Positions 6,082-36,108 of a stretch of 64,000 bases of DNA are shown here, in pieces. The stretch covers positions 96,001 to 160,000 of the forward strand of contig JAHLWS010000078.1 in the NCBI GenBank assembly GCA_019057795.1, given 5' to 3'. This DNA is from Promethearchaeota archaeon. GTDB taxonomy: Archaea > Asgardarchaeota > Lokiarchaeia > Sigyniarchaeales > SOKP01. A program made the translations under genes and the position numbers. How positions within the stretch are numbered: position 1 is the first letter of the stretch; every line of letters begins with the position of its first letter. The notes beneath the pieces are model-generated. The model saw only the letters and a program-made list of their open reading frames with translations, ran no database searches and was not told the DNA's origin.

Positions 6082-6744
6082 TTATAGTATTCCTTTCCTA
6101 GTACCAACCAATAATTTTTTTTTATCAATCAAATCCTTAATTTTTTCATAATTTACGATTAACGCCTTCAATAAATCATAAGTATATCGAATTTTATTAA
6201 GATCTCCTAATTTTTCGATCATTTCTTCCAATTTATAAACACAATTCTCTAAAATTACTTGATTAGCAGATATAATAGATAAATATAAAGAACGAGCAAG
6301 AATTTTAGTAACGAAATTATAGTTTTCTTTTTCAAAGAAAAAATCTGTCATCTCTAAATATCCTTCTGCAGCTTTAGAAGCAATTTTAGGATTTTTTTCT
6401 TCTGATTCCTGCCAAACAATGTCAGCAAATTTAGCTTTCAATAATGAATTTCTTGTGTTTGAAAATTTTGTTGTAAAGTAATTTAAATCTTTTTCTTCAA
6501 AATCAAATTCTTTCCCAACTATTGGAATTAATTTGTAGTCATCATTCCTAATTTCTAAGGCATGAACCAATGCTTCTTTTTGAATCGATCTAAAAAGAAT
6601 ATATTTCTTGTTTTCTTCATATTTCCTCATTAAAAGATTACATAAGTTTAACCAATCCAGTTGATTAAAATGATTAAATTTACCCTCTTCAATCATAATT
6701 CTTATTTCATTTGGTTCTTTATTATTCAAATCTTCTAAGCTCAT
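6082..6744 (-). pseudogene. Probably truncated N-terminal part of a DUF4209-type protein
   Basis: LLKAKFADIVW motif; coding-like sequence continues past the stop (*NKDYIWKSRFHELERKIQKD*). Confidence 0.4.
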
Positions 6745-6835
6745 TAATTACACCTCAAAATATTTTTATTTTTGTCTTACCCTATAATAAACACAACAGG
6801 AATATATTTTTTTCCTATTTCTCTCCTATATTTAT

Positions 6836-6875
6836 TATCTGCCTCCCCCGTGGTACTTCTTCCTAAAAAAGTAGG
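6836..6875. repeat. Island intergenic motif, copy 2
   Basis: TATCTGCCTCCCCCGTGGT followed by a CCTA/TAGG hairpin. Confidence 0.55.
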
Positions 6876-6893
6876 TGTGAAATGATCAGTGAA

Positions 6894-8003
6894 TCATTTT
6901 TTGATTATCAATATTGTTCTTAATAGCAAGATCGTATAACTATAACCCATTTTGGCTTCCCATTCGAGGACATCTTTCTCATTACCGTGCCCAGAATCCC
7001 TAGTGTTCCTCACGGTTCCAACAATATTTATCCCCGATAATAAAAGTTTATCTATACCATTCATCACATTAGAATCGGTACCTCTAAATATTTTTTTTGA
7101 TTTCTGTCTAACTTTTTGGATTAATTTTTCAAGGCTTAGTTTACTATTTTCTTCTTTATCCCCCAAGAGATTTTTATAGAAATTTTCTAATGTTTTACAG
7201 CAATAGAGCAAAACATCGTTCCACTCACCAGTTAATTTATGCTCGTAAGCTTTGTCAACATTTTCCGTGACTTTTGGATATTTTTCAAGCTCTTTGTAAA
7301 CCCTTCTTTCTTGAAATTCCTCGACACTATTTCCTATGATTCTGAGTTTCCCAGCATCACAAGAAATCCAATTTTTGCCCATCAGTCGAAAGATTTCGTT
7401 TAAAAAATCATCAAATTCTTGAGATGTGAGGATATTTTTAACAGAATTCTCATTTAAAAAAAAGTTATTAAAATTGAAGACCTTACGAAAAGATACAGCA
7501 ACATCTCCAGATCTCCAACCTTTTCCAGGATTTTTTCTGAAAAATTCCTCCTTTTCTTCGATTTCTCTTAAACCTGCGTTTTCCCAACCTCCATAATCAT
7601 CTTGATAACTTATATTTTTATACATTTCACCTATCCAACAATTCAATTCTTTGAAAAAATTATTAACTTCGATGTGATTCTTCTTTTTTGTATAACCTAT
7701 TCTTTCAAAAAGGTTTAACAAATGATCATTAATTTCTTTTCTTACTATAGGATTATCTGATCTATAATGATATTCTTTATAATTTTCAAACCAATCTAAA
7801 AACAAAGGATAACCTTTTCTGTGACATTCACTAATTATTCCACTAAATGGAAAATTATAAGGGTCCATACTAAGCAAATTTTGTGCCTGGTATGAATTGT
7901 AAGGATAAAACAATACTAAATTGTAAAGTTTAGTAACACATTCATTTACATTGATATCTTCATATTTTATTGGTAATGATTGACCATTATTAGCCAATTT
8001 CAC
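6894..8003 (-). CDS. Abortive-infection (Abi_C/HEPN-like) protein
   Basis: C-terminal CCKTLE...RNTRDSGHG, typical of Abi_C. Confidence 0.65.
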   Translation of the reverse strand: MKLANNGQSLPIKYEDINVNECVTKLYNLVLFYPYNSYQAQNLLSMDPYNFPFSGIISECHRKGYPLFLDWFENYKEYHYRSDNPIVRKEINDHLLNLFERIGYTKKKNHIEVNNFFKELNCWIGEMYKNISYQDDYGGWENAGLREIEEKEEFFRKNPGKGWRSGDVAVSFRKVFNFNNFFLNENSVKNILTSQEFDDFLNEIFRLMGKNWISCDAGKLRIIGNSVEEFQERRVYKELEKYPKVTENVDKAYEHKLTGEWNDVLLYCCKTLENFYKNLLGDKEENSKLSLEKLIQKVRQKSKKIFRGTDSNVMNGIDKLLLSGINIVGTVRNTRDSGHGNEKDVLEWEAKMGYSYTILLLRTILIIKK

Positions 8004-8308
8004 TTTTACTTCACTTACTTCGACAAAAAAATAGTTTTATTATTCAATAATCTTTGGATAAAGATCAAAAGAAAAAAACGATTGGTCTTAAGCAATTTAT
8101 TAATTTTTAAGATAAGGCAAAATATTAGTCGAAATTTAAATAGGTTTCTCCTTGAAAAAGACTAGGCTAAAAAGGAGGAAATTTCATTCTCTTAGAAAAA
8201 AATCTGAATTTCATAATCATCACTAATAGTTGCCGATTTTCTTTCTATAAGTTTATCACAAATTTTAAGAAACCAACTCAATTTTAATCTCCTCTTTATT
8301 ATAAAATA

Positions 8309-9217
8309 TTAGGATTTAAATTTCTTGTATAAAACTTCAAACATAGGTTTTATAGTATTATACCAACTTTCATCTATTATAGTGCTCTTCATTTCTTTAT
8401 TAATATGGATACAGTTTCTAAAATCTCGTAAATGGGATTGGACTAATTTCCATCGCATTTTTTCTCCAAAGATATCTTTTTGTATTGCAATATCTATATT
8501 TGCAGAGAGTCCTCTCTTTTTAGGAATATTATTAATTTCAAAGTATCTATCTAAAAGAAATTCTAAAATTGATCCCATCATTACCATACAAAATTTAAAT
8601 CTATGTTCATATTCAAATTTTAGCAGATCTCTTATGTTGTTTATAAAGATTTCCTTTTCATTATCATCTTTTAAAAATTTATCAAAGCATCCCAGTGAGA
8701 TTTCAAATTCTTCATTTCTTAATTTTGATTTATATTCTCTATAAACTTCATCCTCTATAAAATTCAATTCTATTGGAATAGCATTTAAATCTCTTTTAAT
8801 TTTTGAAATAATTTTTCTTAGAATATCTATTACGCCATCCAAAATTTTGTAAAATTCTGACTGAGGAATGAAATAAGTAATTGGAGTTCCCCAAATATTT
8901 GTTGTGTCATATCTAGAAATTTTATTTTTAAAAAAACTCACTACTTCTTCAATAGGGTTTATAAAATCTATAACTTTTTCGTATTCTCGTTCCCCGAACC
9001 AAGCAGATGCTTGTTTATGTAATTTCACATTCAATTTCCTATATTGTGGTAAAGCTTCAATTTCCTTATATCCATAAAGCTCCCAATGAGCCCACTCAAA
9101 AACACTTCTGAGGTTATGAACTTTTGCAATTTCTATCAAATTTTTTAAATTATTTGTAATTTGGTATTTATCTTCAATGTTTTTTTCTATTAATTCAATA
9201 ACTTTTTTAGTTTTCAA
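8309..9217 (-). CDS. AbiTii-like N-terminus plus HEPN-like C-terminus
   Basis: EWAHWELYGY...LPQYRKL; GSILEFLL...RNCIH. Confidence 0.6.
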   Translation of the reverse strand: MKTKKVIELIEKNIEDKYQITNNLKNLIEIAKVHNLRSVFEWAHWELYGYKEIEALPQYRKLNVKLHKQASAWFGEREYEKVIDFINPIEEVVSFFKNKISRYDTTNIWGTPITYFIPQSEFYKILDGVIDILRKIISKIKRDLNAIPIELNFIEDEVYREYKSKLRNEEFEISLGCFDKFLKDDNEKEIFINNIRDLLKFEYEHRFKFCMVMMGSILEFLLDRYFEINNIPKKRGLSANIDIAIQKDIFGEKMRWKLVQSHLRDFRNCIHINKEMKSTIIDESWYNTIKPMFEVLYKKFKS

Positions 9218-11339: not shown

Positions 11340-12710
11340 TTATGAATAGTAATGAGGATCCAGCTCTCGAACTCGATTTATTTTACCTCTTAATTCATGT
11401 GACTTGAAATTTAAAAAAGTTTGATATAATTCTAAAGAGCTTGGACCTCTATTATTTTCATCATAAAATGTATCAATATAGTCATAGACAATATGGTGCT
11501 TCTCTTCTCCTCTACCATAGAGGCCATTTCCTTTTAAATATTTATTAATAGTAGGCTTTAAATCTGGTTGAGAAATCAGAAAATCTCTTAAATTAACGCT
11601 TAAAACACCTTGGTATTCTATATTACTTTTAGGATGTAACTTCTTAAACTGATTAACATATTTCGTAAAAACTGAATTCATTGGTAAAACTTCTCTGACT
11701 TCCTTGTTTCCTCTTAAAACATCAAGGATTTGGGTATTTTCTAATATTTCTCTCTTCATAGGTGACATACTTTCAATTTCTTGGCTGAGTTTTTTATTTA
11801 ACTCTTCCTGCTTTTTCATATTTTTAAATTTTTTTACAATATCATCAAGCTTGCCGAATTCATAATCTTCTGCCCATAAAGTACCATGGTGCATCTGTCT
11901 CATATCTTTACGTCTATCTAGCTTCAATTTAGCGTCATTTTTTGTTAACAAATTAATAGGGACAATATAGCTCTTAAGATTGTCCTGATTAACAGAAGCA
12001 ATAAAATCAACTTTACCTTTATACGATTCCCTAAAACGATTTCGGTTGATATTAAGTTTTCGTTGAGCTGTATCAAATCTGATATAAGTACTATCTTTTT
12101 CCTTAAATGTCCTAGCAGTTTTCACTTCTATTGCATAAAACTCACTTTTTTTTTTAACTATTAAATCAAAAGACGGTCTTCCTACAATCGGGTGAAGCAC
12201 ATTATATCCATGTTTTATAAATTCAGCGGCTATTCTCAATTCTATTGCGTCACCTCGATCAAGAGATGTTATTTCTTTCAAGAGGTTATCTTTACGTCTA
12301 ATCTCATAAAGCTTGTAATTACTTATATCTTTATTAATAATTTGAATTGGTATTAAGTAAGATTTATCACTTTTGTTATTATATATACCAATATAATCAA
12401 AATCTTCATTCTTCTTATCGAGTTTATTAGATTCTAAATTATTCTCAAAAACTTTAACTCTAGAAAACTTATCTGCACTTAAAAATGGTTTTTTACCATA
12501 TTTTTGCTGAATAATAAAATCATAATTAGGATTATTACTAATAGGTGTGGATATTATGTAGCCATTACTCACTAAATCCGCAGCAATGTTGACTCGAGCA
12601 ATTTCAATTTTATTTGGTGCTTCGACATTATCTTCTTTAATTTTTCCCCTATTTATCATCTCTATTTCATTAATATTATGAGATAAATCTTCGCTATTCT
12701 TCTTCTTCAC
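11340..12710 (-). CDS. Tandem PD-(D/E)XK endonuclease domains (group I intron-associated type); probably the 3' part of the preceding gene
   Basis: YDFIIQ...RVKV and FDLIV...AIEVKT...YKGKVDFIA; in frame with 12777-13643 across one TAA. Confidence 0.75.
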   Translation of the reverse strand: MKKKNSEDLSHNINEIEMINRGKIKEDNVEAPNKIEIARVNIAADLVSNGYIISTPISNNPNYDFIIQQKYGKKPFLSADKFSRVKVFENNLESNKLDKKNEDFDYIGIYNNKSDKSYLIPIQIINKDISNYKLYEIRRKDNLLKEITSLDRGDAIELRIAAEFIKHGYNVLHPIVGRPSFDLIVKKKSEFYAIEVKTARTFKEKDSTYIRFDTAQRKLNINRNRFRESYKGKVDFIASVNQDNLKSYIVPINLLTKNDAKLKLDRRKDMRQMHHGTLWAEDYEFGKLDDIVKKFKNMKKQEELNKKLSQEIESMSPMKREILENTQILDVLRGNKEVREVLPMNSVFTKYVNQFKKLHPKSNIEYQGVLSVNLRDFLISQPDLKPTINKYLKGNGLYGRGEEKHHIVYDYIDTFYDENNRGPSSLELYQTFLNFKSHELRGKINRVRELDPHYYS

Positions 12711-13699: not shown

Positions 13700-14938
13700 T
13701 CAATTTAATTTCTTTTCTAGTTCCTTGATCACTTCTTTTCCGTAATTATTTAACTGATCCAATTTCCTCCTTTTATCTCTTAAGGCTTTTTCAATCGCAT
13801 TTATGATGTTCTTCTTATCTACTTTGTATCCATGCTTTTCACATAAATTTCTTAAGAAATTTTCATATTCGATTGAGTAGTGAATTTTTTTATCCGGATA
13901 TTTCTTATCAAGTTCTTTTTTAATTTTAGCTCTCTTAAGTGGATCCTCAAATGTTAATAAACTCATTCCAATTGTTTTTGCATGGAAGTCCCATTTTTTA
14001 GGTTTAACATTGTATAGAAATTTGGAAATCTCAAATTTATTTTCAATAGTAGTTTGATATGTTTTGAATTCCTCCTTTGTATCAGGATTTTGATAAATTT
14101 TAGGTTTAGGTATTTTTTGAGTCTCTATTCCCACAGACTCACAAATTTCCTTAAAATCTTTAACTAAAGGGAATGAGCCATTTTTAAAATTTAATCCAAA
14201 TGATTTCTGAGTATTTCTAAGATAGACTGAGCCATCAGTATCAAAAAGGCCTCGTAAACATCCAATTTTATTTCTCTCCGTTTTTTTAACCCAATTAGGA
14301 ACTTTAACTTGGTTTTTAACTTTATCTCCAGGAATTATACCTTTTTCTATCAATCCTTCTACTACTGATTTATTATATATTGTAAGGTCAGTCCCCTTTC
14401 TATCACTTTTATCATAAGATTTCGGTGAAATATTGAAGAGTTCTTCCATCAACTCTTTGGTATAATTTCGATACTTCTTTTCTTCTACTCGATTTGAAGA
14501 TATTCTTAATCGATACTTTTTACCTTTTTCGTAGTGAGTATTACCATCTCCAAGTATGATCCCAATCATTTCTGCGAGTTTTGGGTTTTCTTCTGATGTA
14601 AATTTTATAGTTTCAATAGGTTTTCCTTTATTACCATATTTTTCTTTGAGGTAATTTTTGTCTCTCTCTTTAATATGCTTCTCGTCTTTAATTCTTCGAT
14701 ATTTATCTTTATGGCTACTAAAACCAGATTTTGGATATAATTCTGCATCGTCAAATGGCTCAAACTCGTTATCAAATTTATCAGTGTTGTTAGGATTTTC
14801 ATCAATGGGAACGAAATCATTTCCTAATTCATCGTTTTTCCTGAGTTTGGTCTTGGGTTGAAACTCCTTTTCAAATTTTTCACTCTTTTTATCGCTTTTC
14901 TTCTCTTTTTCCTTCCCTTGTTCAATATATTCTCGCAT
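13700..14938 (-). CDS. F-x-P-leader protein with double-motif LAGLIDADG endonuclease
   Basis: LAEMIGIILGDG and LRGLFDTDG. Confidence 0.88.
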   Translation of the reverse strand: MREYIEQGKEKEKKSDKKSEKFEKEFQPKTKLRKNDELGNDFVPIDENPNNTDKFDNEFEPFDDAELYPKSGFSSHKDKYRRIKDEKHIKERDKNYLKEKYGNKGKPIETIKFTSEENPKLAEMIGIILGDGNTHYEKGKKYRLRISSNRVEEKKYRNYTKELMEELFNISPKSYDKSDRKGTDLTIYNKSVVEGLIEKGIIPGDKVKNQVKVPNWVKKTERNKIGCLRGLFDTDGSVYLRNTQKSFGLNFKNGSFPLVKDFKEICESVGIETQKIPKPKIYQNPDTKEEFKTYQTTIENKFEISKFLYNVKPKKWDFHAKTIGMSLLTFEDPLKRAKIKKELDKKYPDKKIHYSIEYENFLRNLCEKHGYKVDKKNIINAIEKALRDKRRKLDQLNNYGKEVIKELEKKLN

Positions 14939-14956: not shown

Positions 14957-15508
14957 TTATTTCTCGTAAATTGATTTTTTATATTGTTCCTTCTTGAGTT
15001 CTCTGTTAATTTCTTCATCTGATTTTACAAAAAAATTCTTGACTTCTTTTATAAAATCTTTAATTCCTTGCTCTAAGTTTTTCCAAAAATCTCCTTTTGG
15101 TTTGGAAGGCTTAGGTTGTTTTTCGGGGGTACTTTTCTTTTCTGGTTGCTGAGATACATTAATAATTGTATTACCTTTATCTTTAGGGGGGTTATCAGGC
15201 GGTTCTTTATCTGGGGGGCTAATTTTATAATCAGGCGTTTCATTCACTTGAGTATTTGGTTTATCATTTTCAATATTTTGTTCTTCACCCAAACTGTCTT
15301 TATCGCCAGGATCGAATGGTTCAAAATCGTTTTGGTCGAGATTGTCATCCATTTCTCTTTCATCTTGGGGTTCGAACTCATTGTCCATTTCTTCATTGGT
15401 TTCATCATCTATATCGGTTGGTTCGAATTCGTCTTCAATATCAGATATTTCGTCTTCAATTTCGTCATCAACATCTGAATCATCTAAATCTTCATACTCT
15501 TCACTTAT
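14957..15508 (-). CDS. Very acidic, Pro-rich protein with three F-E-P repeats; probable ATA start
   Basis: Frame is open 40 codons upstream of ATG 15388 to an ATA preceded by AGGTGAT; the extension has the same D/E-rich composition (EDEFEP). Confidence 0.7.
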   Translation of the reverse strand: MSEEYEDLDDSDVDDEIEDEISDIEDEFEPTDIDDETNEEMDNEFEPQDEREMDDNLDQNDFEPFDPGDKDSLGEEQNIENDKPNTQVNETPDYKISPPDKEPPDNPPKDKGNTIINVSQQPEKKSTPEKQPKPSKPKGDFWKNLEQGIKDFIKEVKNFFVKSDEEINRELKKEQYKKSIYEK

Positions 15509-18338
15509 TTTTGATCACCTTTTTTTTTTCTTTTAAAAAATCAAGATTAAATCTATTCTGAGAATCAAGTAAATCGGGAGATAATGGTTCTCCACAATAC
15601 GTGCACATAAAATCATTCTCATCAGGGGGATTACTACAGTATGGGCATATATTTTTGTCATGTGACATGTTAATTTGTTCTCTGAGCTCTTGTTTATTAA
15701 CTTTAATATCTAATGTTTCAATGATAAATTTTTCTCCATTAATTCCGTTTAAAATTAACGCTTGTCGGTTTTTTTGGCACATTAGGAATTCCTGCTCTAC
15801 GGGATTTCCGATCATAATAGTATTGCAAGGATACCCGACCCGAAAAATAATTTTCAAGCTGGGGAGTGTGGTAACGCAATCAAAAAGTCTTGAAGGGGTT
15901 TGGTCCGATAAGATAAAGGAGAGTCCTTTGGAGCGAAATTCTCTTAAAAGCTCGTTGAAAATTTTTTCTAATTGTTCTCGAGAAATAAAGTCATCATCGT
16001 CGTAATTGTTTGTGATTGATTTTTCTAAGATCTGGTGAGCCTCGTCAATTAAAATAATGTTTTTTAATTTACCAGCTTCTCTATCTGGAATTAAAACGCG
16101 GATTAATTGAAAAATCGCGCTTGTTAAGACTCTCTTTTCGTAAATCGTGCACATCGAGAAATCGAGAAAAATTTTCTTCCCTTTCTGCCAATCCATAAAC
16201 CAACCAGGAACCGCTTTATCAGGGTTTAAACGGAGGGTATTCGTTAAAATTTCGTTGGAAAAAAGTGAGAGCACTCGATTTTTTATAGCCCTTACTATGT
16301 TAGTTTGAAACTTTACATGGTATGGATATTGTTCAAAATACCTTAGGAGATTCTGAAATAGCATTTTTAACGAGCTAGGTAATTTTCCTTTCTTTGTTAG
16401 AAACGAGTTCATTACGTTGACCATATTCTTTTCGACGATATTTTTTAACCCAAGAGCAGCAATTAAGTAAGTAGCAGTTTCTTGTAAGCTTCTTTCAAGA
16501 TACTGTCCTTCATGAAAATAAGGCACTTTGAAATCAGAGGATCCAAATTTAATAACTTTATCAACTTTATAGAAAAGTTCCTGATTTCCTTTTCCAAGGT
16601 TTAATATTAGAATTCCGACATCAGGGTTTTTATTATAAAACTCGTTAACGATTTGAGCTAAAAGATAAGTTTTTCCCGTACCTTGTTGTCCTGCTATCAA
16701 AAGACTTTGAGCGAAGGAATTTTTATGCAATAATATTTTTCGCTTGGTGCTTCTCCCATTGTTGACATATTTCCCAATTAAAATATGATTTGGGTCACTA
16801 TCGCTAATAGGAATGTGTTTAATATTTTCATTTCTTAAAGTAAACGGTTTAGTTAACGGGATGTTCTCCGGAATGTTAAAATCAACGCAATTAGATGTAA
16901 TATAACCTCCAGATATGATGTTAACCCGTTTAATATTTCCATGGGTTCCTAAAGGTACTCTTTTAAGCTGTGCTGGATTTTTTTTATTGCGGCAGGACAA
17001 TGTAAGGCTCTTTAATTTACCCTCGAGGGTTTGAATTTCTTGTTTCATTAACACGGGATCAGTTTGGTTTATTTGATAATTGATATAAATCCGCACTCTG
17101 AAAATATCATCTTGCCACATTGATAATAACCGTTTTTTTTCATCTTCGTCTTTGAATTTTAAATTTCCAATTTTATCTCTAAATTTGCTAACCTTCTTAT
17201 CTTCAGTTCTTTTCCAGATGATGTAGAGTTTAACTTTTTTATCGCTCCGATGGAAAAGATTAATAAAATCGTTGATTAGTGTAAATTTCTCCATATAAGG
17301 TGGTTTAGGTAATTTGATTTCCCAAAACCGGTTATTCTTGTAAATTTTCTGTTTGGTAATGGGTTTTAATTCCAAAGTTCCATCTAAACCAGGATACATA
17401 CTCGTTATTCGGCTGAGAAGTGCTTCCCCCAATACTCTTGCTGTTTTCTCGTTTCGAGCTTTGAGAAAAAAAGTCCATCGAAAATCTTTATCTGATTTCA
17501 ATTCTAGGCCATATCTGTGTTTATCAGAGAAAAAATCTTTTAACCAAGCTATTTCATTTTCATTTTTCTCGCTTCCATATTCCATATTTTTACTAAGAAC
17601 TCCTTGGGAAATTTTAACTCTAGCTTGCCAAAAGAGAATCTTATTTTTTTTCTCTTTTTTAGGCTCTAATTGCTTTTTTTCTTCGTTTTCATAACTATTG
17701 ACGCGATGCCTTTTAGATACCTTTAATTTTAATACAATAGTTTGATAGAACGAGGTTATTCTGTTTCTAAAAGATTCGTTTGAAATAGCAATTGTAAGAG
17801 AAACTAAGCATAGCATAAGAGACGCTAAAACAAAAACATCTAGAATTATGGAACTATAAAAAAATAGAGATAGTCCAATAAAAAAGGCTATTAGTTTATA
17901 CTCTTCGTCAAATGGAATAACGATTATAGAAATAACTACGCCTATAATAGTAATGGTGAGCGTTCCAGTAATAAACATATCTGGAAGTCCGACAACGAAA
18001 ATATGAAATGCTAATAGAACCATTATCGAATGAAAGTATAATATTAGATTAGATCGAAAGTTCCTTTGAAATATGAATAAATTGACGCAAAGAACAATTA
18101 GGATTATAAAAAATTCCATTTCAATAAGAATGATGATACTTGGACTCAAAAATTTTAGAAGGAACATATCTTCATATATTATAAAAATAATAACCATTAG
18201 AATAAATGTTCCAAAATACTTCATTAAAGATTTAATCCGTTCTTTCTTATCGGTCAGCCAGTAATAAATAGAAATTAAACTAATAAGTGTAATCGCGATA
18301 ATAATGCCTAGCCAAAAGTTCTCAGAAAAGAAACTCAT
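15501..18338 (-). CDS. Membrane-anchored HerA/VirB4-like P-loop ATPase with C-terminal zinc ribbon
   Basis: About 7 N-terminal TM segments; GQQGTGKT; ILIDEAH; EFRSKG...DQTPS; CPYC...CTYC. Confidence 0.88.
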   Translation of the reverse strand: MSFFSENFWLGIIIAITLISLISIYYWLTDKKERIKSLMKYFGTFILMVIIFIIYEDMFLLKFLSPSIIILIEMEFFIILIVLCVNLFIFQRNFRSNLILYFHSIMVLLAFHIFVVGLPDMFITGTLTITIIGVVISIIVIPFDEEYKLIAFFIGLSLFFYSSIILDVFVLASLMLCLVSLTIAISNESFRNRITSFYQTIVLKLKVSKRHRVNSYENEEKKQLEPKKEKKNKILFWQARVKISQGVLSKNMEYGSEKNENEIAWLKDFFSDKHRYGLELKSDKDFRWTFFLKARNEKTARVLGEALLSRITSMYPGLDGTLELKPITKQKIYKNNRFWEIKLPKPPYMEKFTLINDFINLFHRSDKKVKLYIIWKRTEDKKVSKFRDKIGNLKFKDEDEKKRLLSMWQDDIFRVRIYINYQINQTDPVLMKQEIQTLEGKLKSLTLSCRNKKNPAQLKRVPLGTHGNIKRVNIISGGYITSNCVDFNIPENIPLTKPFTLRNENIKHIPISDSDPNHILIGKYVNNGRSTKRKILLHKNSFAQSLLIAGQQGTGKTYLLAQIVNEFYNKNPDVGILILNLGKGNQELFYKVDKVIKFGSSDFKVPYFHEGQYLERSLQETATYLIAALGLKNIVEKNMVNVMNSFLTKKGKLPSSLKMLFQNLLRYFEQYPYHVKFQTNIVRAIKNRVLSLFSNEILTNTLRLNPDKAVPGWFMDWQKGKKIFLDFSMCTIYEKRVLTSAIFQLIRVLIPDREAGKLKNIILIDEAHQILEKSITNNYDDDDFISREQLEKIFNELLREFRSKGLSFILSDQTPSRLFDCVTTLPSLKIIFRVGYPCNTIMIGNPVEQEFLMCQKNRQALILNGINGEKFIIETLDIKVNKQELREQINMSHDKNICPYCSNPPDENDFMCTYCGEPLSPDLLDSQNRFNLDFLKEKKKVIKNK

Positions 18339-18559: not shown

Positions 18560-19756
18560 ATGAACTTCGGCGAATTTTGTTCTACAGTTAAAAAATTTTT
18601 CGAGGAATCTCTACAAAATGTAAATGAAGAAATAAGAAATGGAAATATTAAAATAAAAGTTGATTATTCATTTCCATCGTATTTAAGAATTGGAGAGAGC
18701 CCTCAACATTGGATGGCGGAATTAACTGGAGCTAGTGAAATGATTAATGTTAATAATTATGGACTTGAAGCGCCAAATGTAAGTGAAAAGCATGAAAATA
18801 CATCTGCTTTTTTCAATCCTGGTTTAGATATTGAGGATTCAATGAAACCAGTATCTAATATTGTAGCAGTAAAAGGTGTTGGATTTGTTAATTTATGTGT
18901 TGCTACAAATTATGATTATACTGCTTTTAAAAAATTTATTAATTTAGAAACTTCATCTACTGAGGTTAGACTTGATAGTGCTGAGGTTCCAATTACAATT
19001 CAACCAGACTGTAAAACAATTTTTTTCTATAATGTCGACCTGATAAGAACTGAAAATTTCAAATTATTTTTTAAATCTATTCCCACAGCAATAGCAGTTA
19101 AAAAAAACATTACAAGAAATGAATTGAAACAATTTCTAAAACAACTTGTGAATAAATTATTTAAATCAAGGCCACCTACGATTTTTGGGATAAATATAGG
19201 TTATTCTTATTCCTCAGAGAAATTTGCTCGAGATTTATTGAGTTTAACAAATCAACCTATAAATGAACCTATAATTGATGGATTTATTCAAAAACATTTG
19301 AAATTTTTTACAAAAGGTCTTGGATATCAAAGAGGGCTTAGCCAAACTGAATTGAAAATATTAGAAGGAGACTTTGGAGATAAAGAATGTCTTAAACCTG
19401 ATTATTTGATGTTAAGAAATGATGGTTTTTATGATATTCTTGATCTTAAGACATCTGCTTTAAAGAAGAAATCAATCACGATAGGAGATACAAGTCGAAT
19501 GAGATTTAATGCATATGTAAGTGAATTAATATCTCAACTTGTAGGTTATGAAAGATATTTCAAATTAGAAAAAAACTATAAATGGGTTTTAAAAAAATAT
19601 GGTATAAAAATAAGAAATCCAAAACTAATTGGAATTGTTGGTAGTTTTCAAAATTTCGATCGCTCTCAGGTTGATTTAGCATTAGAACAATATAAAGATA
19701 ATATCGCTATTTTAAGCTACTCTGATTTAATCAATTTATTAAGAAAAAATATCTAA
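18560..19756 (+). CDS. Shedu (SduA/DUF4263)-like anti-viral nuclease
   Basis: C-terminal E..I..FI.KH, PDYL, ILDLKT, ISQLVGYERY, IRNPKLIGIVG. Confidence 0.7.
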   Translation: MNFGEFCSTVKKFFEESLQNVNEEIRNGNIKIKVDYSFPSYLRIGESPQHWMAELTGASEMINVNNYGLEAPNVSEKHENTSAFFNPGLDIEDSMKPVSNIVAVKGVGFVNLCVATNYDYTAFKKFINLETSSTEVRLDSAEVPITIQPDCKTIFFYNVDLIRTENFKLFFKSIPTAIAVKKNITRNELKQFLKQLVNKLFKSRPPTIFGINIGYSYSSEKFARDLLSLTNQPINEPIIDGFIQKHLKFFTKGLGYQRGLSQTELKILEGDFGDKECLKPDYLMLRNDGFYDILDLKTSALKKKSITIGDTSRMRFNAYVSELISQLVGYERYFKLEKNYKWVLKKYGIKIRNPKLIGIVGSFQNFDRSQVDLALEQYKDNIAILSYSDLINLLRKNI

Positions 19757-32011: not shown

Positions 32012-32065
32012 ATGGGAAAATGGAACCTTCCTCCATCTGGCGGACACAAATATATAAGAATTTAA
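32012..32065 (+). pseudogene. Orphan 5' end of iolN (MGKWNLPPSGGH)
   Basis: AGGTGA RBS, ATG at 32012; matches MTKWNLPP....GH of 33887-34867; similarity ends near 32048. Confidence 0.85.
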
Positions 32066-33726
32066 TTATTTATCCAATCTTTAAGTTTTTGTTCACATTC
32101 TCTTTTTAATTTAGGATTATACTTATTCTTCCTCCAATAACCCATTGGTGGTTTATCAATCCTAGATAATTTGCATAACTTATCAATATCCTTAGGTAAA
32201 ACTCCTAATATTTTGGCTATTCTATTTTGGGGGATCTCCCATATTATCTCTTCTATATTCTCTTTAGGAATATTGGCTAAATTTTCTCTATTCTGTTCTA
32301 ATATAGGAGATTTCTTAATAGCTATAGCAGCTATTCTTGCTCTTTTTATACTTTCCTCTAAAGGAGTAAGATAAATTCTTTTTCTTGGTAAAGAATCTTT
32401 ATAATTATCTAAAATTTTATTAAATAGTTGTACTCCTAAGAACAATCTATAAGCATTTACATTTTTATTATCTCTGGTTACTAGATTATCAATGTTAAAT
32501 TTTTCTTTAATTTGTTCAAGAAATTTTCGATTTCCCGATGTAATTTTTGAAGTTCCTTTAGTTCCATCACCATCAAAATAACCTAATAGGAAAGCTAGTT
32601 CTATTTCACGATTAGGAAGTATAGGGTATTCAATTTTAAGAGATTTGTTAGGAATACAACCATGACTATTTAAATCATCAAACATCCTTTTACTGCTAAT
32701 TCGTATACGCACATTATTGTCAATATATTCTTTCTTCTCTTTATTAGCTCCCGAAAAATCAACATACTTATCAATTAATATTTCATCTTTCAAATTTACT
32801 TTTAGAGTTACTTTTTTAGATTTAGTATCCTTTTTTATATAAATAGAGCCATCTGAATACATCACACCTAACCAATATCCTTTTTCTTTAGTATTTATTA
32901 ATTCAAAACAATTGTCAATTAAATTTGGATGTGCTACATTCTCTCTTAAAACTCGTCGCTTTTCTAACCCTAATTCCTTTTCTTTATCTAGAACATAGTG
33001 ATGATCAATCCATATACTTTTAATATTTTTAAATTTAGCTATATTACTAGCTGCTTTTGTAGTTAACATAAGCTGATCAATTATGTACATCTCAATAATT
33101 CTTTCCTTATTTATAATCTTAACACATTTTAATAATTCTTCCTTGTCTTTATCTAATAAATCTTGATTTGTTTTAATGAAATCAACAAATGCAGGTCTTA
33201 AAACAACTCCTTTATTTGCTTTTTGCTTTCTTTTTTCAAAATAATCATTAAAAAGAGATAATAGCTTTGGATGAAATAATGTATTTTCAAAATAATTTTT
33301 ATCTCTATCCTTCAAATATTTTAGTCTAATTCTATCCAACTGTTCTTTATATTCTATTCTGTTTTCATGAGGATTTTTATCAATTTCTAAACTGCAATCT
33401 GGAATAAAGGTTCTCTCATTATTTTCTTGCATTTCGAGGGAGGGAGTAAAACTTCGCTCTTCATTCTTGATATTGAAGTTTAACTTAGGTGTAAAAGTTA
33501 TATTCACAAAATCTTCAGATATTTCAGCAGAAGGATTGAAGCTAGTAGTTTCTTGTTTAAGATCTGGAGTAAAAAATCTTTCTTTATCCAATTTTGGTAT
33601 TTTTAAAGATGGAAAGAATATATTGTCTTCTTTAGATTTACCTTTGTAAATATCTGAATTATTCTCTTTAGATTTAACCTCTTTCCAACTCTTTCTGTTC
33701 TTATATTCATTACCATATTTGGACAT
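32062..33726 (-). CDS. Free-standing LAGLIDADG endonuclease with six F-x-P repeats in its leader
   Basis: YWLGVMYSDG and FLLGYFDGDG; FFP/FTP/FNP/FTP/FTP/FIP then RI...KDRDKNY; C-terminal HTH-like KPPMGYW. Confidence 0.88.
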   Translation of the reverse strand: MSKYGNEYKNRKSWKEVKSKENNSDIYKGKSKEDNIFFPSLKIPKLDKERFFTPDLKQETTSFNPSAEISEDFVNITFTPKLNFNIKNEERSFTPSLEMQENNERTFIPDCSLEIDKNPHENRIEYKEQLDRIRLKYLKDRDKNYFENTLFHPKLLSLFNDYFEKRKQKANKGVVLRPAFVDFIKTNQDLLDKDKEELLKCVKIINKERIIEMYIIDQLMLTTKAASNIAKFKNIKSIWIDHHYVLDKEKELGLEKRRVLRENVAHPNLIDNCFELINTKEKGYWLGVMYSDGSIYIKKDTKSKKVTLKVNLKDEILIDKYVDFSGANKEKKEYIDNNVRIRISSKRMFDDLNSHGCIPNKSLKIEYPILPNREIELAFLLGYFDGDGTKGTSKITSGNRKFLEQIKEKFNIDNLVTRDNKNVNAYRLFLGVQLFNKILDNYKDSLPRKRIYLTPLEESIKRARIAAIAIKKSPILEQNRENLANIPKENIEEIIWEIPQNRIAKILGVLPKDIDKLCKLSRIDKPPMGYWRKNKYNPKLKRECEQKLKDWINN

Positions 33727-33886
33727 AAAAACTTCCCGTATTTTTTTTAATTGTTGAGAAATTTATTATTATATTCCAGTAAAAAATTTGGAGTGATCTA
33801 AATTTTAAACTTAAAAATCATTATTTCAAATAGAAATAATTTGAAGAATTAATAGTATGATGAAAAAGAAAAATAGGTAAAATTAA

Positions 33887-34867
33887 ATGACAAAATGGAA
33901 TTTACCACCTGAATATAGTAAGTGCAGAGGACATATGGACTTACCGGATGGAATTTATCTCCAAAATATGAACATTTCTGAAATTCGAGAACGCGTAAAA
34001 AAAAATGACGTTATAATCATCCCAATCGGGTCTACTGAAAACCACGGTCCAGCAGCTTGTATAGGAGAAGATACATTTTTAGTAACGAGAATGGCTGAAA
34101 TAATAGCGCAAAAAACGGGTTGTACAGTTGCCCAACCAACTTGGTACGGTTCTCATCCATATCATCACGTTGGAATGCCTGGTACCATAATAGTTCCTGA
34201 AGAAACATTTAAGGGACTTTTGCGAGCTATAATGGCTGGTTGTTGGAACATGGGTTTTAGAAAAATGATCCTATTAAATGGTCATGGTCACGAGTATGTT
34301 ATCCCGAGCGCAATTCACGAGTGGGCCAAAAACTATCAATTACCTGCCGTAATTTGTAATGTTAACTGGTATCACGCAATTCCAGAATATTGTAAGGATA
34401 AAGAACACGGAGGCCCTTTTGAAACTCCTTTCGTTCATGCAGATGAAGCAGAAACCTCATTTTCAATGACACTCTTTCCAGAAATGATAAGAAAAATTGA
34501 TTCTAGCGAAGATAACGAAGTTGTTGGATGGATGCCTGATGGACATGTTGATAAAGCTGGAAATATCTATCAAAAACCAATCCGATGGTATGGACAAATA
34601 GGGTTTGGACCAATTGAACTTGCAGCATATCCTGAAGGGCATGTAGGATGTCCAAGTAAAGCAACTTTCGAGAAAGGCGAACCTGGTATGGAGGCTTTTT
34701 TAGATTACTTAGAGAAATTAGTCGTTGATATATTGAAGACTTTTCCACCAGGAAAATTACCCCCTACTGATCAAATTACGCAACGAGATCCGAAAGAAAT
34801 TGAACCGTATTTAAAAGGACCTTTAAATGGTGGAAAAAGTATTTATGAATTGAGATATCCACCTTAA
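33887..34867 (+). CDS. iolN: 3-dehydro-scyllo-inosose hydrolase (creatininase family)
   Basis: PIGSTENHG, EDT, NGHG, HADEAETS; similarity to Thermotoga IolN and gene context. Confidence 0.88.
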   Translation: MTKWNLPPEYSKCRGHMDLPDGIYLQNMNISEIRERVKKNDVIIIPIGSTENHGPAACIGEDTFLVTRMAEIIAQKTGCTVAQPTWYGSHPYHHVGMPGTIIVPEETFKGLLRAIMAGCWNMGFRKMILLNGHGHEYVIPSAIHEWAKNYQLPAVICNVNWYHAIPEYCKDKEHGGPFETPFVHADEAETSFSMTLFPEMIRKIDSSEDNEVVGWMPDGHVDKAGNIYQKPIRWYGQIGFGPIELAAYPEGHVGCPSKATFEKGEPGMEAFLDYLEKLVVDILKTFPPGKLPPTDQITQRDPKEIEPYLKGPLNGGKSIYELRYPP

Positions 34868-34982: not shown

Positions 34983-35489
34983 TTAGAATTTGGACCCACA
35001 ATATGCGCAATATACGGCTTCATCCTTACTAATAGGCGTTCCACAGTTGGGACAAAATTTTGAATGTTCTTGAATAATAGCCTCTTCCGCCTTCTCAACT
35101 CGCATTGACTCAGCGTCTCCGGTTTGGGTGGAAAATTGACCTTTTAACCTACCTGAAGATTTCAAGTCTAAAATAATCGCTCGAATATCTCTGACTGAAA
35201 TGCCCGTGTTATTACTTATCTCTTCTACGGAAATATTGGGATTGTGTTCAAATTCATGCGATACAACATTTTTTAATTTACTACGATTAGTAAAGGCGGC
35301 AATTTGACTTACTAAAATAGCGGTTCCTATCCCAATCCAAAGAAAACTCATCCAGTTTACTCCACCAAATTGCCGAAAACCATCAACTAATCCGATAATA
35401 CCCCAGTAGAAAAATATGCCTGCGAATATTAAAGCACATATCGAGAAACCATTAATATATTGGTCTTTTTTATATTTCATCTCTATCAT
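34983..35489 (-). CDS. 2-TM, winged-helix and zinc-ribbon protein
   Basis: CPNC...CAYC; paralog of 35623-36108. Confidence 0.8.
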   Translation of the reverse strand: MIEMKYKKDQYINGFSICALIFAGIFFYWGIIGLVDGFRQFGGVNWMSFLWIGIGTAILVSQIAAFTNRSKLKNVVSHEFEHNPNISVEEISNNTGISVRDIRAIILDLKSSGRLKGQFSTQTGDAESMRVEKAEEAIIQEHSKFCPNCGTPISKDEAVYCAYCGSKF

Positions 35490-35622: not shown

Positions 35623-36108
35623 TTAAACCTTTGCTCCACAGTAAGCACAATATAATGCAGATTCCTTCTTAATAGGTGTGCCACAATTTGCACAGTAGTT
35701 CCCTTTCGCTTGAGCCTCTGGTTGATTAGAAATTGTAACTTCCACATATTTTGCTTCGCCTGTTTTAGTCGAAAATTTCCCTCTTAACTCTCCCCTTGCT
35801 TTCAAGTCTAACACTATTGCTCGAACATCTTTAATCGTAATTCCAGTTTTTCTAGCAATTTCCTCAATTGAAGCGTTAGGATTTTGCTCAAATTCTTGTT
35901 TAACTACTGTTCTTAGTTTGCTTCTATTAGTAAGTTTATATATTTGGCTTGAGATTATGGATATTCCAATAGCAATTAAAATGAAGCCAAACCACCACCA
36001 GAACCCCCAATTAATTAAATTATTAAAACCCCAATACAAGAAAGCTCCTGCAATAATTAACCCGCAAATGCTAAATCCTTCATTGTATTCATTTCGTTCG
36101 TAATGCAT
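35623..36108 (-). CDS. 2-TM, winged-helix and zinc-ribbon protein
   Basis: Tandem paralog sharing TNRSKL, RAI.LDLK, CAYCG. Confidence 0.8.
   Translation of the reverse strand: MHYERNEYNEGFSICGLIIAGAFLYWGFNNLINWGFWWWFGFILIAIGISIISSQIYKLTNRSKLRTVVKQEFEQNPNASIEEIARKTGITIKDVRAIVLDLKARGELRGKFSTKTGEAKYVEVTISNQPEAQAKGNYCANCGTPIKKESALYCAYCGAKV

Follow-up and report, generated by a model that had tools for sequence, protein, structure and literature searches.

Homing endonucleases are usually viewed as self-contained selfish genes. Enzymes such as I-DmoI, I-SceI and I-Tsp061I are single chains with two LAGLIDADG motifs and their acidic residues, and they go with a precise insertion at one site, of which empty and filled alleles coexist. 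Here we describe A554, a protein alike in these respects, which is encoded in a window of 64,000 nucleotides (contig C78:96001-160000 of a 4.95-Mb genome with 31% G+C, labelled G000). Homologues of the proteins of this window are named from the Asgard lineages Hodarchaeota, Promethearchaeota and Thorarchaeota. Unlike the enzymes above, A554 adds a leader of 120 residues that is made of short repeats and predicted to be disordered, as well as extra helical, DNA-binding-like parts at its N- and C-terminal sides; the solved stand-alone LAGLIDADG chains that it matched (172-301 residues) are too short for such a leader. Its insertion lies within a protein gene, at the 5' end of the coding sequence, brings a substitute for that end, and is not located in an intron or an intein.

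As we report below, several homing endonuclease families share exchangeable conserved leaders, predicted to be disordered, that track the clades of neighbouring HerA-like ATPases. Parts of this arrangement have described counterparts. In type VII secretion, LXG toxins likewise combine a conserved N-terminal module with C-terminal nucleases that are exchanged by recombination, and depend on a membrane-associated ATPase of the FtsK/HerA superfamily, the FtsK-like EssC. Staphylococcus essC variants each have their own effector set. In contrast to these toxins, no immunity genes were found here, the nucleases are of site-specific homing types, the leader is a disordered repeat and not a folded helical domain, and the ATPase has a single P-loop. 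The HerA-NurA pair of end resection and the anti-phage systems of HerA with nuclease or Sir2 effectors are comparable in that, by sequence profile, HerA proteins rank as the closest solved relatives of the ATPases described here; a hexameric motor paired with a nuclease is a known HerA theme. However, the matches are weak (E 7.7e-6 at best), the ATPases come either with a hydrophobic N-terminal part fused to them or with an M50-like membrane protein as neighbour, the nucleases can be exchanged and are of homing type, and there is a repeat leader instead of a folded docking domain. In type IV secretion (relaxase and effector signals) and in the Ced and Ted systems, a DNA-processing enzyme carries a signal for a membrane ATPase of the same superfamily, as would putatively be the case here, but here the signals would be N-terminal repeats, and HerA ranks above the type IV ATPases. 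The BRC repeats and FxPP motifs of BRCA2 (PMC11229353) are also several short Phe-centred motifs in a disordered region. BRCA2 is eukaryotic and its motifs read F-x-x-A or F-x-P-P instead of F-x-P-x-L or F-x-P-x-D; any analogy would be one of mechanism only.

A literature search found no description of such leaders for archaeal homing enzymes. New in this work are the A554-type leader family and its cargos, the exchange matrix of leaders and nuclease bodies, and a rule, over 20 loci, by which leader type follows ATPase clade. New as well are the standing of A554 as an orphan of an ATPase clade absent from its own genome, and the population evidence for its insertion into iolN. The features are listed in Table 1. 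Throughout, G-labels denote genomes of the genus set (n=42), P-labels homologous proteins, and L-labels the loci that were read.

Table 1. Features of the window, with positions counted from its first nucleotide (aa, amino acids).
Feature	Position	Strand	Description
A554	32062-33726	minus	554-aa open reading frame (ORF); predicted free-standing single-chain LAGLIDADG homing-type endonuclease with N-terminal repeat leader
A554 leader	33367-33726	minus	residues 1-120, predicted disordered
Six F-x-P motifs	33400-33618	minus	residues 37-109; core F-[T/x]-P-[S/D/K]-L, period ~15 residues
RIRLKYLKDRDKNY	33292-33333	minus	residues 132-145, leader/body junction
Insert	32049-33934		1,886 bp; A554, its upstream region and replacement iolN 5' end
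Stranded old iolN 5' end	32012-32047	plus	12 codons, MGKWNLPPSGGH, with old upstream region
iolN	33887-34867	plus	3-dehydro-scyllo-inosose hydrolase gene, intact; first 16 codons (33887-33934) brought by insert
ATPase	15501-18338	minus	945 aa, HerA/FtsK superfamily; acidic [FY]-[ED]-P clade; hydrophobic N-terminal part
E143	14957-15388	minus	leader-only, NEFEP/NDFEP/FDP motifs; directly after ATPase gene
B412	13700-14938	minus	412-aa acidic-leader LAGLIDADG nuclease; leader residues 1-110 (14609-14938)
C288	12777-13643	minus	acidic leader of B412 on PD-(D/E)XK nuclease
D456	11340-12710	minus	two PDDEXK_5 domains, no leader; last gene of ATPase operon

A homing-type insertion in iolN

The insert follows codon 12 of iolN and leaves the iolO-like gene untouched. 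Since it supplies a substitute start of 16 codons, iolN stays intact (NCBIfam NF041098, 505.5 bits against a cut-off of 245, with the match beginning at residue 17). The new start, MTKWNLPPEYSKCRGH, is diverged and resembles the long-type starts of G026 and G032; the 12 stranded residues match the start of the intact iolN in G064 and G009 without a difference. Six relatives (G064, G009, G026, G032, G013 and G022) have iolN next to an iolO-like gene, at a distance of about 93 bp as measured in G064, and the empty sites of G064 and G009 align to both flanks of the insert. The empty joint, which runs from 32047 to 33935 and skips 1,887 positions, and the filled form were both present in contigs of four metagenome runs from four studies (X3, X5, X7 and X13), indicating that the insertion is polymorphic in nature. 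In each of these metagenomes the empty form had the higher contig depth. A554 is a genuine homing-type insertion, and the preliminary description was right that a nuclease has invaded iolN.

The body of A554 matches Pfam LAGLIDADG_3 (27.6 bits; cut-off 22.5). In an AlphaFold2 model based on 19 homologues, the predicted local distance difference test (pLDDT) values of residues 151-460, taken per 10-residue block, were mostly 82-97, with two blocks at 70-75. When the model was searched with Foldseek, the top matches were I-DmoI (E 7.2e-6, TM-score on target 0.66), I-SceI and I-Tsp061I, and the modelled chain has the alpha-beta-beta-alpha-beta-beta-alpha fold of a monomeric two-domain enzyme. In the first LAGLIDADG motif G287 is invariant, and D292 and G293 are present in at least 90% of the rows of alignment A1; in the second, L380, L381, G382, D385, G386 and G388 are invariant and D387 is found in at least 90% of the rows. 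By model and alignment, the body is a LAGLIDADG homing endonuclease that keeps the acidic residues of both motifs; as a homing enzyme it would cleave the empty site.

The repeat leader and its exchange between nucleases

The leader of A554 contains the motifs FFP (at residue 37), FTP (52), FNP (63), FTP (78), FTP (93) and FIP (107). They are spaced by 15, 11, 15, 15 and 14 residues, with a deletion of four residues in the second repeat. Residues 1-150 hold six F-x-P against a mean of 0.58 in composition-matched shuffles, none of 20,000 of which reached six. Among the 10,965 ORFs of at least 50 residues in the genome, the density of the motif is highest in A554 (6 per 100 residues); the runner-up value of 4 is reached by seven ORFs. 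The preliminary description had singled out positions 33290-33726, that is residues 1-145, for six regularly spaced motifs, and the translation bears this out. It had also placed the repeats in a disordered region. In agreement with this, AlphaFold2 gave pLDDT values below 50 and no secondary structure for residues 1-120 of A554, and the same was true of residues 1-110 of B412, the acidic-leader nuclease of the window. After the six motifs comes RIRLKYLKDRDKNY, in and just past a predicted helix (residues 119-137, pLDDT 63-73) that leads into the body. The leaders are hydrophilic (10-17% I/L/V/M/W/C), and a Pfam search found no family on any of them. The charge-hydropathy plot was dropped as evidence of disorder and pLDDT was preferred, because the folded nuclease bodies also score as disordered in this K/E-rich proteome.

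Leaders of the A554 type share a layout to which A554 conforms: a block M-x-x-Y-G-x-E-Y-K ... D-I-Y comes first, and after it stand five or six F-x-P-x-L repeats with a period of about 15 residues. The A554 leader is 36-45% identical to those of six relatives (alignment A3). The mean column identity of this alignment is 62%; the repeat residues F, P and L are among its invariant columns, and the flanks vary. Across 11 leaders of the type, [FY]-x-P was retained in 62 of 66 repeat slots, with a spacing of 15/15/15/15/14, and the ratio of nonsynonymous to synonymous divergence (dN/dS) was 0.18-0.51 in all 21 pairs. These comparisons indicate that the leader is under purifying selection, and its repeats behave as the conserved short motifs that they had been supposed to be.

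The A554-type leader was found in six of the 42 genus genomes at E 5e-10 or better, and a profile search of 1.84 billion proteins recovered 13 cluster representatives that carry it (E up to 1e-10). Region-restricted word searches returned few proteins for either leader (2 and 4). Weaker matches were set aside: one in G033 (E 0.004) contains internal stops, another in G051 (E 0.0075) lies in a 367-residue protein without the motifs and was treated as false, and the profile matches P0041-P0043 were, by reading, unrelated repeat proteins.

Leaders and bodies were found in every pairing by BLASTP. The A-type leader stands before an A-type body in A554, P0002, P0005 and G018, and before a B412-type body in P0018, P0035 and P0039; the B412-type leader stands before a B412-type body in B412, P0024, P0025 and P0026, and before an A-type body in G028. 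Other acidic [FY]-x-P leaders are joined to the A-type body in P0004, P0014 and P0015. The A-type leader also precedes an HNH-like CxxC/HH protein (G029, P0044), treble-clef zinc fingers (P0031) and long proteins with multiple helix-turn-helix (HTH) domains (G064, G065). In the two G065 copies, synonymous divergence (dS) is 0.34 in the leader and 0.95 in the body, and this lower value in the leader suggests recombination at the leader/body junction. With all four leader/body combinations represented, the leaders are evidently swappable modules on a shared pool of nuclease bodies.

At L047 (G028:C96, 6492-8156), among housekeeping genes, a 554-residue chimera joins a B412-type leader and a short piece of the first LAGLIDADG half of the B412 type to an A554-type body, and possibly represents a further homing-type insertion. 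Exchange of cargo is also seen in proteins of about 1,360 residues from the WDEIDW clade (one of the ATPase clades described below), in which some 800 N-terminal residues are common and the C-terminal cargo differs (L045 against L064). For this reason the idea that the large WDEIDW-leader proteins merely bear inteins was rejected as a general reading. The exception is L065 (G061:C68, 2724-6518), where a WxxIDW-leader protein of 1,264 residues shows, around its LAGLIDADG domain, an intein-splicing match of 33 bits that stays below the cut-off of 35.8; the nuclease of this protein may lie inside an intein.

HerA-like ATPase loci and their leader types

The ATPase of the window has one P-loop domain, and its N-terminal part was read as membrane-spanning from sequence alone. 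In a profile comparison with the Protein Data Bank it gave weak matches to HerA (4d2i, E 7.7e-6; 8wiv, E 2e-4), YjgR (E 5e-4) and STIV B204 (E 1.6e-3), and the same profile ranked the type IV secretion ATPases VirB11 (E 0.68) and IcmO (E 0.42) below HerA. The PADLOC models mad8 (E 7.6e-14) and HerA (E 2.3e-7) matched as well, and Pfam DUF87 reached 18.3 bits, below the cut-off of 23.2. Of the genes that follow, E143 has the motifs FEP at residue 5, FEP at 22 and FDP at 25 and no Pfam family; its counterpart in G062 has 193 residues. B412 matches LAGLIDADG_3 with 44.9 bits. The leader of C288 is 66% identical to that of B412 over 121 residues (BLASTP E 9e-45), with F-x-P at the same three positions, and precedes a PDDEXK_5 nuclease domain (61.9 bits). 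D456 matches PDDEXK_5 in two stretches (110.4 bits) and a 'homing endonuclease' model of PADLOC (E 1.3e-7). No immunity-like small ORFs were found in the gaps between B412, C288 and D456 (56 and 66 bp). The operon lies amid defence-type genes, namely DUF7380, AbiTii and a protein with the Shedu SduA_C domain (6082-9217 and 18560-19756).

When the window ATPase was used as query, 17 of the 42 genus genomes gave matches. At 17 of 21 ATPase loci, the next gene on the same strand was read as opening with a short repeat in two to seven copies. Under a strict automatic criterion, nine of 20 downstream proteins passed, compared with 11 of 4,287 background ORFs, two of which are such genes themselves. 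An IQ-TREE phylogeny of 15 ATPases contained six clades with support of 100/99-100, and the repeat type followed the clade: acidic [FY]-[ED]-P in the window and G062, FDPND in G034 and G020, WDEIDW at seven loci, NKIEP in G018 and on contig C53 of A554's own genome, an FDDIIPERF-like motif in G005 and G004, and the basic F-T-P-S-L of the A554 type in G064 and G065. After five loci had been added (20-row FastTree), L064, L065 and L067 grouped with their leader type, L063, which has a new leader type, joined the clade of L024, L025 and L067 with a support of 1.0, and L062 fell outside the named clades.

A link between leader gene and ATPase gene, in the sense of the preliminary description, is found in relatives. 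In G064 an M50-like membrane protein is followed by a 660-residue ATPase and a 795-residue protein with an A-type leader, which starts 39 bp past the ATPase gene; G065 has its leader gene further away, at 4.8 kb downstream of the ATPase, and a second copy lies about 2.6 kb from an ATPase remnant that is 76% identical. The use in trans of the ATPase 18 kb away from A554 was not borne out. That ATPase falls in the acidic clade, and the clade paired with A554-type leaders was found, among the 42 genus genomes, only in G064 and G065; in A554's own genome its best match is the window ATPase, at 31% identity.

Several observations on these loci stand by themselves. A554's genome has three more ATPase paralogue loci, on contigs C53 (L032), C84 (L033) and C82 (L034), with the order ~245-residue protein (absent in C82), 252-residue M50-like membrane protein with HExxH, ATPase of 652-684 residues, and repeat-leader protein. 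In C84 and C82 the leader repeat is WDEIDW; the C53 protein has NKIEP repeats and two HNH-like motifs. At L062 (G020:C89, 1349-3415), the sole intact ATPase locus without a leader gene, a 688-residue GIY-YIG protein (Pfam GIY-YIG, 35.3 bits) lies directly upstream and overlaps the ATPase start. The GIY-YIG nuclease family includes homing enzymes. The sequence E-N-[I/V]-x-S-Q-S-x-S-T-[V/I]-L follows the repeat leaders of three clades (downstream proteins of L017, L019, L045, L063 and L064) and is absent from A554, B412 and E143. The N-termini of the ATPases at the 20 loci all keep W-[L/I]-x-[D/N]-[P/Y/F]-[F/L]-x-D, which resembles the leader motifs YDPFSL and FDPND. Speculatively, the leaders might mimic a self-contact of the ATPase, by analogy with BRC repeats, which mimic the FxxA of RAD51. 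A relation between ATPase charge and leader charge was too weak to use: the motor carries +10 to +17 in both clades with acidic F-x-P leaders and -6 to +1 in the pair with basic leaders, but the acidic WDEIDW clade, at -3 to +6, does not fit.

What the leaders may do

We tentatively favour the explanation that the leaders are docking or translocation address tags for a matching HerA-like ATPase, in which we infer both the contact between leader and ATPase and its effect. A554 would then be a mobile free-standing homing endonuclease whose first ~120 residues form a disordered, multivalent leader of six F-x-P-x-L motifs. More generally, lineage-specific repeat leaders would couple interchangeable homing-type nucleases, among them LAGLIDADG, PD-(D/E)XK and, by motif, HNH-like enzymes, to a matching clade of HerA/FtsK-type ATPases with a membrane part or partner. 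The tag could dock on the ATPase oligomer, or it could be threaded into the ATPase as a translocation signal. The A554 leader would be an orphan in its present genome; it would come from a donor with the matching ATPase, or may cross-react with the window ATPase through the common F-x-P core. A precedent is provided by BRCA2, in whose disordered region Phe motifs stand in tandem: the FxxA motifs of the eight BRC repeats and the FxPP motifs bind RAD51 and DMC1, oligomeric RecA-fold ATPases, at the ATPase domain (PMC11229353).

If the leaders are indeed address tags, short linear motifs would wire interchangeable DNA-cutting modules to a motor, a logic familiar from eukaryotic hub proteins and bacterial effector secretion. 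The natural pair of empty and filled iolN sites, the six-repeat peptide, and cognate and non-cognate ATPases provide the material for a test. For annotation, a set of 'hypothetical' Asgard N-termini becomes a recognisable class.

A number of observations weigh against the address-tag explanation. The matching ATPase clade was present in only two of the six genomes with A-type leaders (G064 and G065). Of the others, G000 and G018 hold other ATPase clades only, G029 has only a fragment of 84 residues, and G021, 99% complete and with two leader genes, gave no ATPase match with either query; G028 has its B412-type leader gene among housekeeping genes and no ATPase of the window clade. All genomes except G000 are draft assemblies. 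Single loci also depart from the pattern: L062 is without a leader gene, a single motif copy is present at L019, the ATPase gene of L066 is broken, and the leader gene of L027 lies 4.8 kb away. No motif is common to the leader types (F-T-P-S-L, FDPND, WDEIDW, NKIEP, FDDIIPERF), and a single conserved pocket is therefore not implied. Moreover, adjacent genes are co-inherited, and the match of clade and leader may reflect co-descent rather than co-adaptation. A complex prediction for the G064 ATPase (660 residues, 13-row alignment) with its own leader (133 residues, 7-row alignment) returned a score of 0.00, which is no answer and speaks neither for nor against binding.

The address-tag explanation can be extended to a tagged-homing system of Loki-type Asgard archaea, in which clade-specific leaders would hand homing endonucleases of several families to matching membrane-linked HerA-like translocases, and the nuclease would travel or act with the transferred DNA. 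The ATPase would be needed in the donor, and the recipient would merely gain the gene of a tagged nuclease. A need for the ATPase in the donor only would explain orphans such as A554 in genomes without the matching ATPase. We regard this extension as improbable.

The leader could also act without an ATPase, as a repeat array that binds another host factor, for instance RadA, for homing or for control of the nuclease; the enzyme would in this way bring the repair machinery to its own cut. We consider this alternative doubtful, although it has points in its favour. Leader nuclease genes keep six motifs where no ATPase was found, and the two copies in G021 have a dN/dS of 0.32. A554 itself looks like a working homing element, and its cognate ATPase clade is far away. 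Motifs of the Phe-x-Pro type do bind RecA-family ATPases (PMC11229353), but the motif here is F-x-P-[S/D/K]-L and not F-x-P-P. RadA and the core factors, however, are conserved across the genomes, and their binding leaves the diversity of the leaders and their tracking of ATPase clades unexplained, as it does the frequent placement of a leader gene directly after an ATPase gene.

A sub-form of the address-tag explanation, with a competitive instead of a DNA-processing purpose, is export as in polymorphic toxin systems. The ATPase and its membrane partner would secrete nuclease effectors with the leader as secretion signal, and A554 would be an effector cassette out of its place. Loci of polymorphic toxins with PD-DExK domains are a subject of PMC6393860 for archaea. 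A conserved N-terminus with variable C-terminal nucleases, including the proteins of about 1,360 residues, and an ATPase clade that follows the leader type of the effector would suit such a system. Yet immunity-like ORFs were absent after the nucleases: behind A554 come the stranded iolN start and the iolO-like gene, and behind the 1,361-residue G028 protein an oppositely oriented gene. The cargos belong to families of site-specific homing enzymes and have extra HTH or zinc-finger DNA-binding parts. With no immunity-like ORFs and with nuclease families of homing enzymes, tagged site-specific nucleases fit better than toxins. Furthermore, a precise homing-type insertion with a replacement gene end is unexpected for an orphan toxin cassette, the ATPase has one P-loop domain compared with several in EssC/EccC, and Pfam detected no known trafficking domain (LXG, Rhs, signal peptide and the like). 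Export is for these reasons unlikely.

The preliminary description proposed a dispersed family, in which the leaders of A554 and B412 are diverged members defined by (F-x-P)n plus R-D-K-x-Y and A554 may use the window ATPase in trans. The echo on which it built is present in 13700-14938: B412 has FQP at residue 26, FVP at 42 and FEP at 59, followed by RIKDEKHIKERDKNY at residues 82-96, and its residues 1-121 hold three F-x-P compared with 0.45 in shuffles (P=0.0055). In Smith-Waterman alignment the two leaders scored 71 against 44 +/- 7.5 after composition-matched shuffling (z 3.6; P=0.0035, 2,000 shuffles) and the 25-residue tails alone gave P=0.0002 (5,000 shuffles), a modest excess in the case of the leaders, by which the similarity withstands the refuting check that the preliminary description had set; the pair was picked after the fact, however, and the P values are uncorrected for this selection. 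RDKNY occurs in exactly two of the 10,965 ORFs of at least 50 residues, A554 and B412, and the two leaders have the F-x-P core, a period of 15-17 residues, disorder and the kind of cargo in common. Paralogues aside, each tail has the other as its best match in the genome, but by thin margins (45 against 44 and 41).

What stands of the proposed family is this pairwise similarity; it was not recovered at the level of profiles. Whole-protein BLASTP matched the leaders of A554 and B412 at E=0.015 only, phmmer with either leader gave no cross match at E up to 10, and hhalign of an 11-sequence A554-type profile against a 6-sequence B412-type profile returned a probability of 0.2% (E 0.34). The motifs also differ in kind, being basic K-[K/E]-R-x-F-T-P-S-L in A554 and acidic [N/D]-[D/E]-F-x-P-x-D in B412, as does the post-proline residue, which is L in the A554 type and D or E in the B412 type. 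R-D-K-x-Y fails as a family signature in close homologues. Of the A554 line, only P0001 has an identical tail; the segment reads DINKNY in P0002 and DSDY in P0003, and is absent from P0004; in the B412 line a variant is present in four of six members, and P0025 and the G028 protein are without it. The tail is, on this comparison, a lineage-specific junction segment and not a family signature. Recent gene conversion behind the two RDKNY tails was unsupported, the tail DNA being purine-rich and showing synonymous differences from the B412 and C288 tails. Considering in addition that the window ATPase clade differs from the A-type-linked one, we hold a single family with use of that ATPase in trans to be quite unlikely. 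The two leaders are better read as two interchangeable leader kinds, between which homology is not detectable.

That the leader has no function as a protein, being either a conserved 5' DNA handle for cassette recombination or a low-complexity by-product of an AT-rich genome, is the least probable alternative: the difference in dS between leader and body (0.34 against 0.95) is as expected from recombination that homogenises leaders, and the genome, at 31% G+C, is K/E/N/D-rich, but dN/dS lies well below 1 in 21 of 21 pairs, conservation is centred on F, P and L, shuffles contain far fewer motifs, and comparable N-terminal repeats are found in only 11 of 4,287 ORFs.

At 34983-35489 and 35623-36108 the window also encodes tandem paralogues of 168 and 161 residues, which, judged by their primary structure, have hydrophobic segments at the N-terminus, then a middle part, and a CxxC...CxxC zinc ribbon at the C-terminus.

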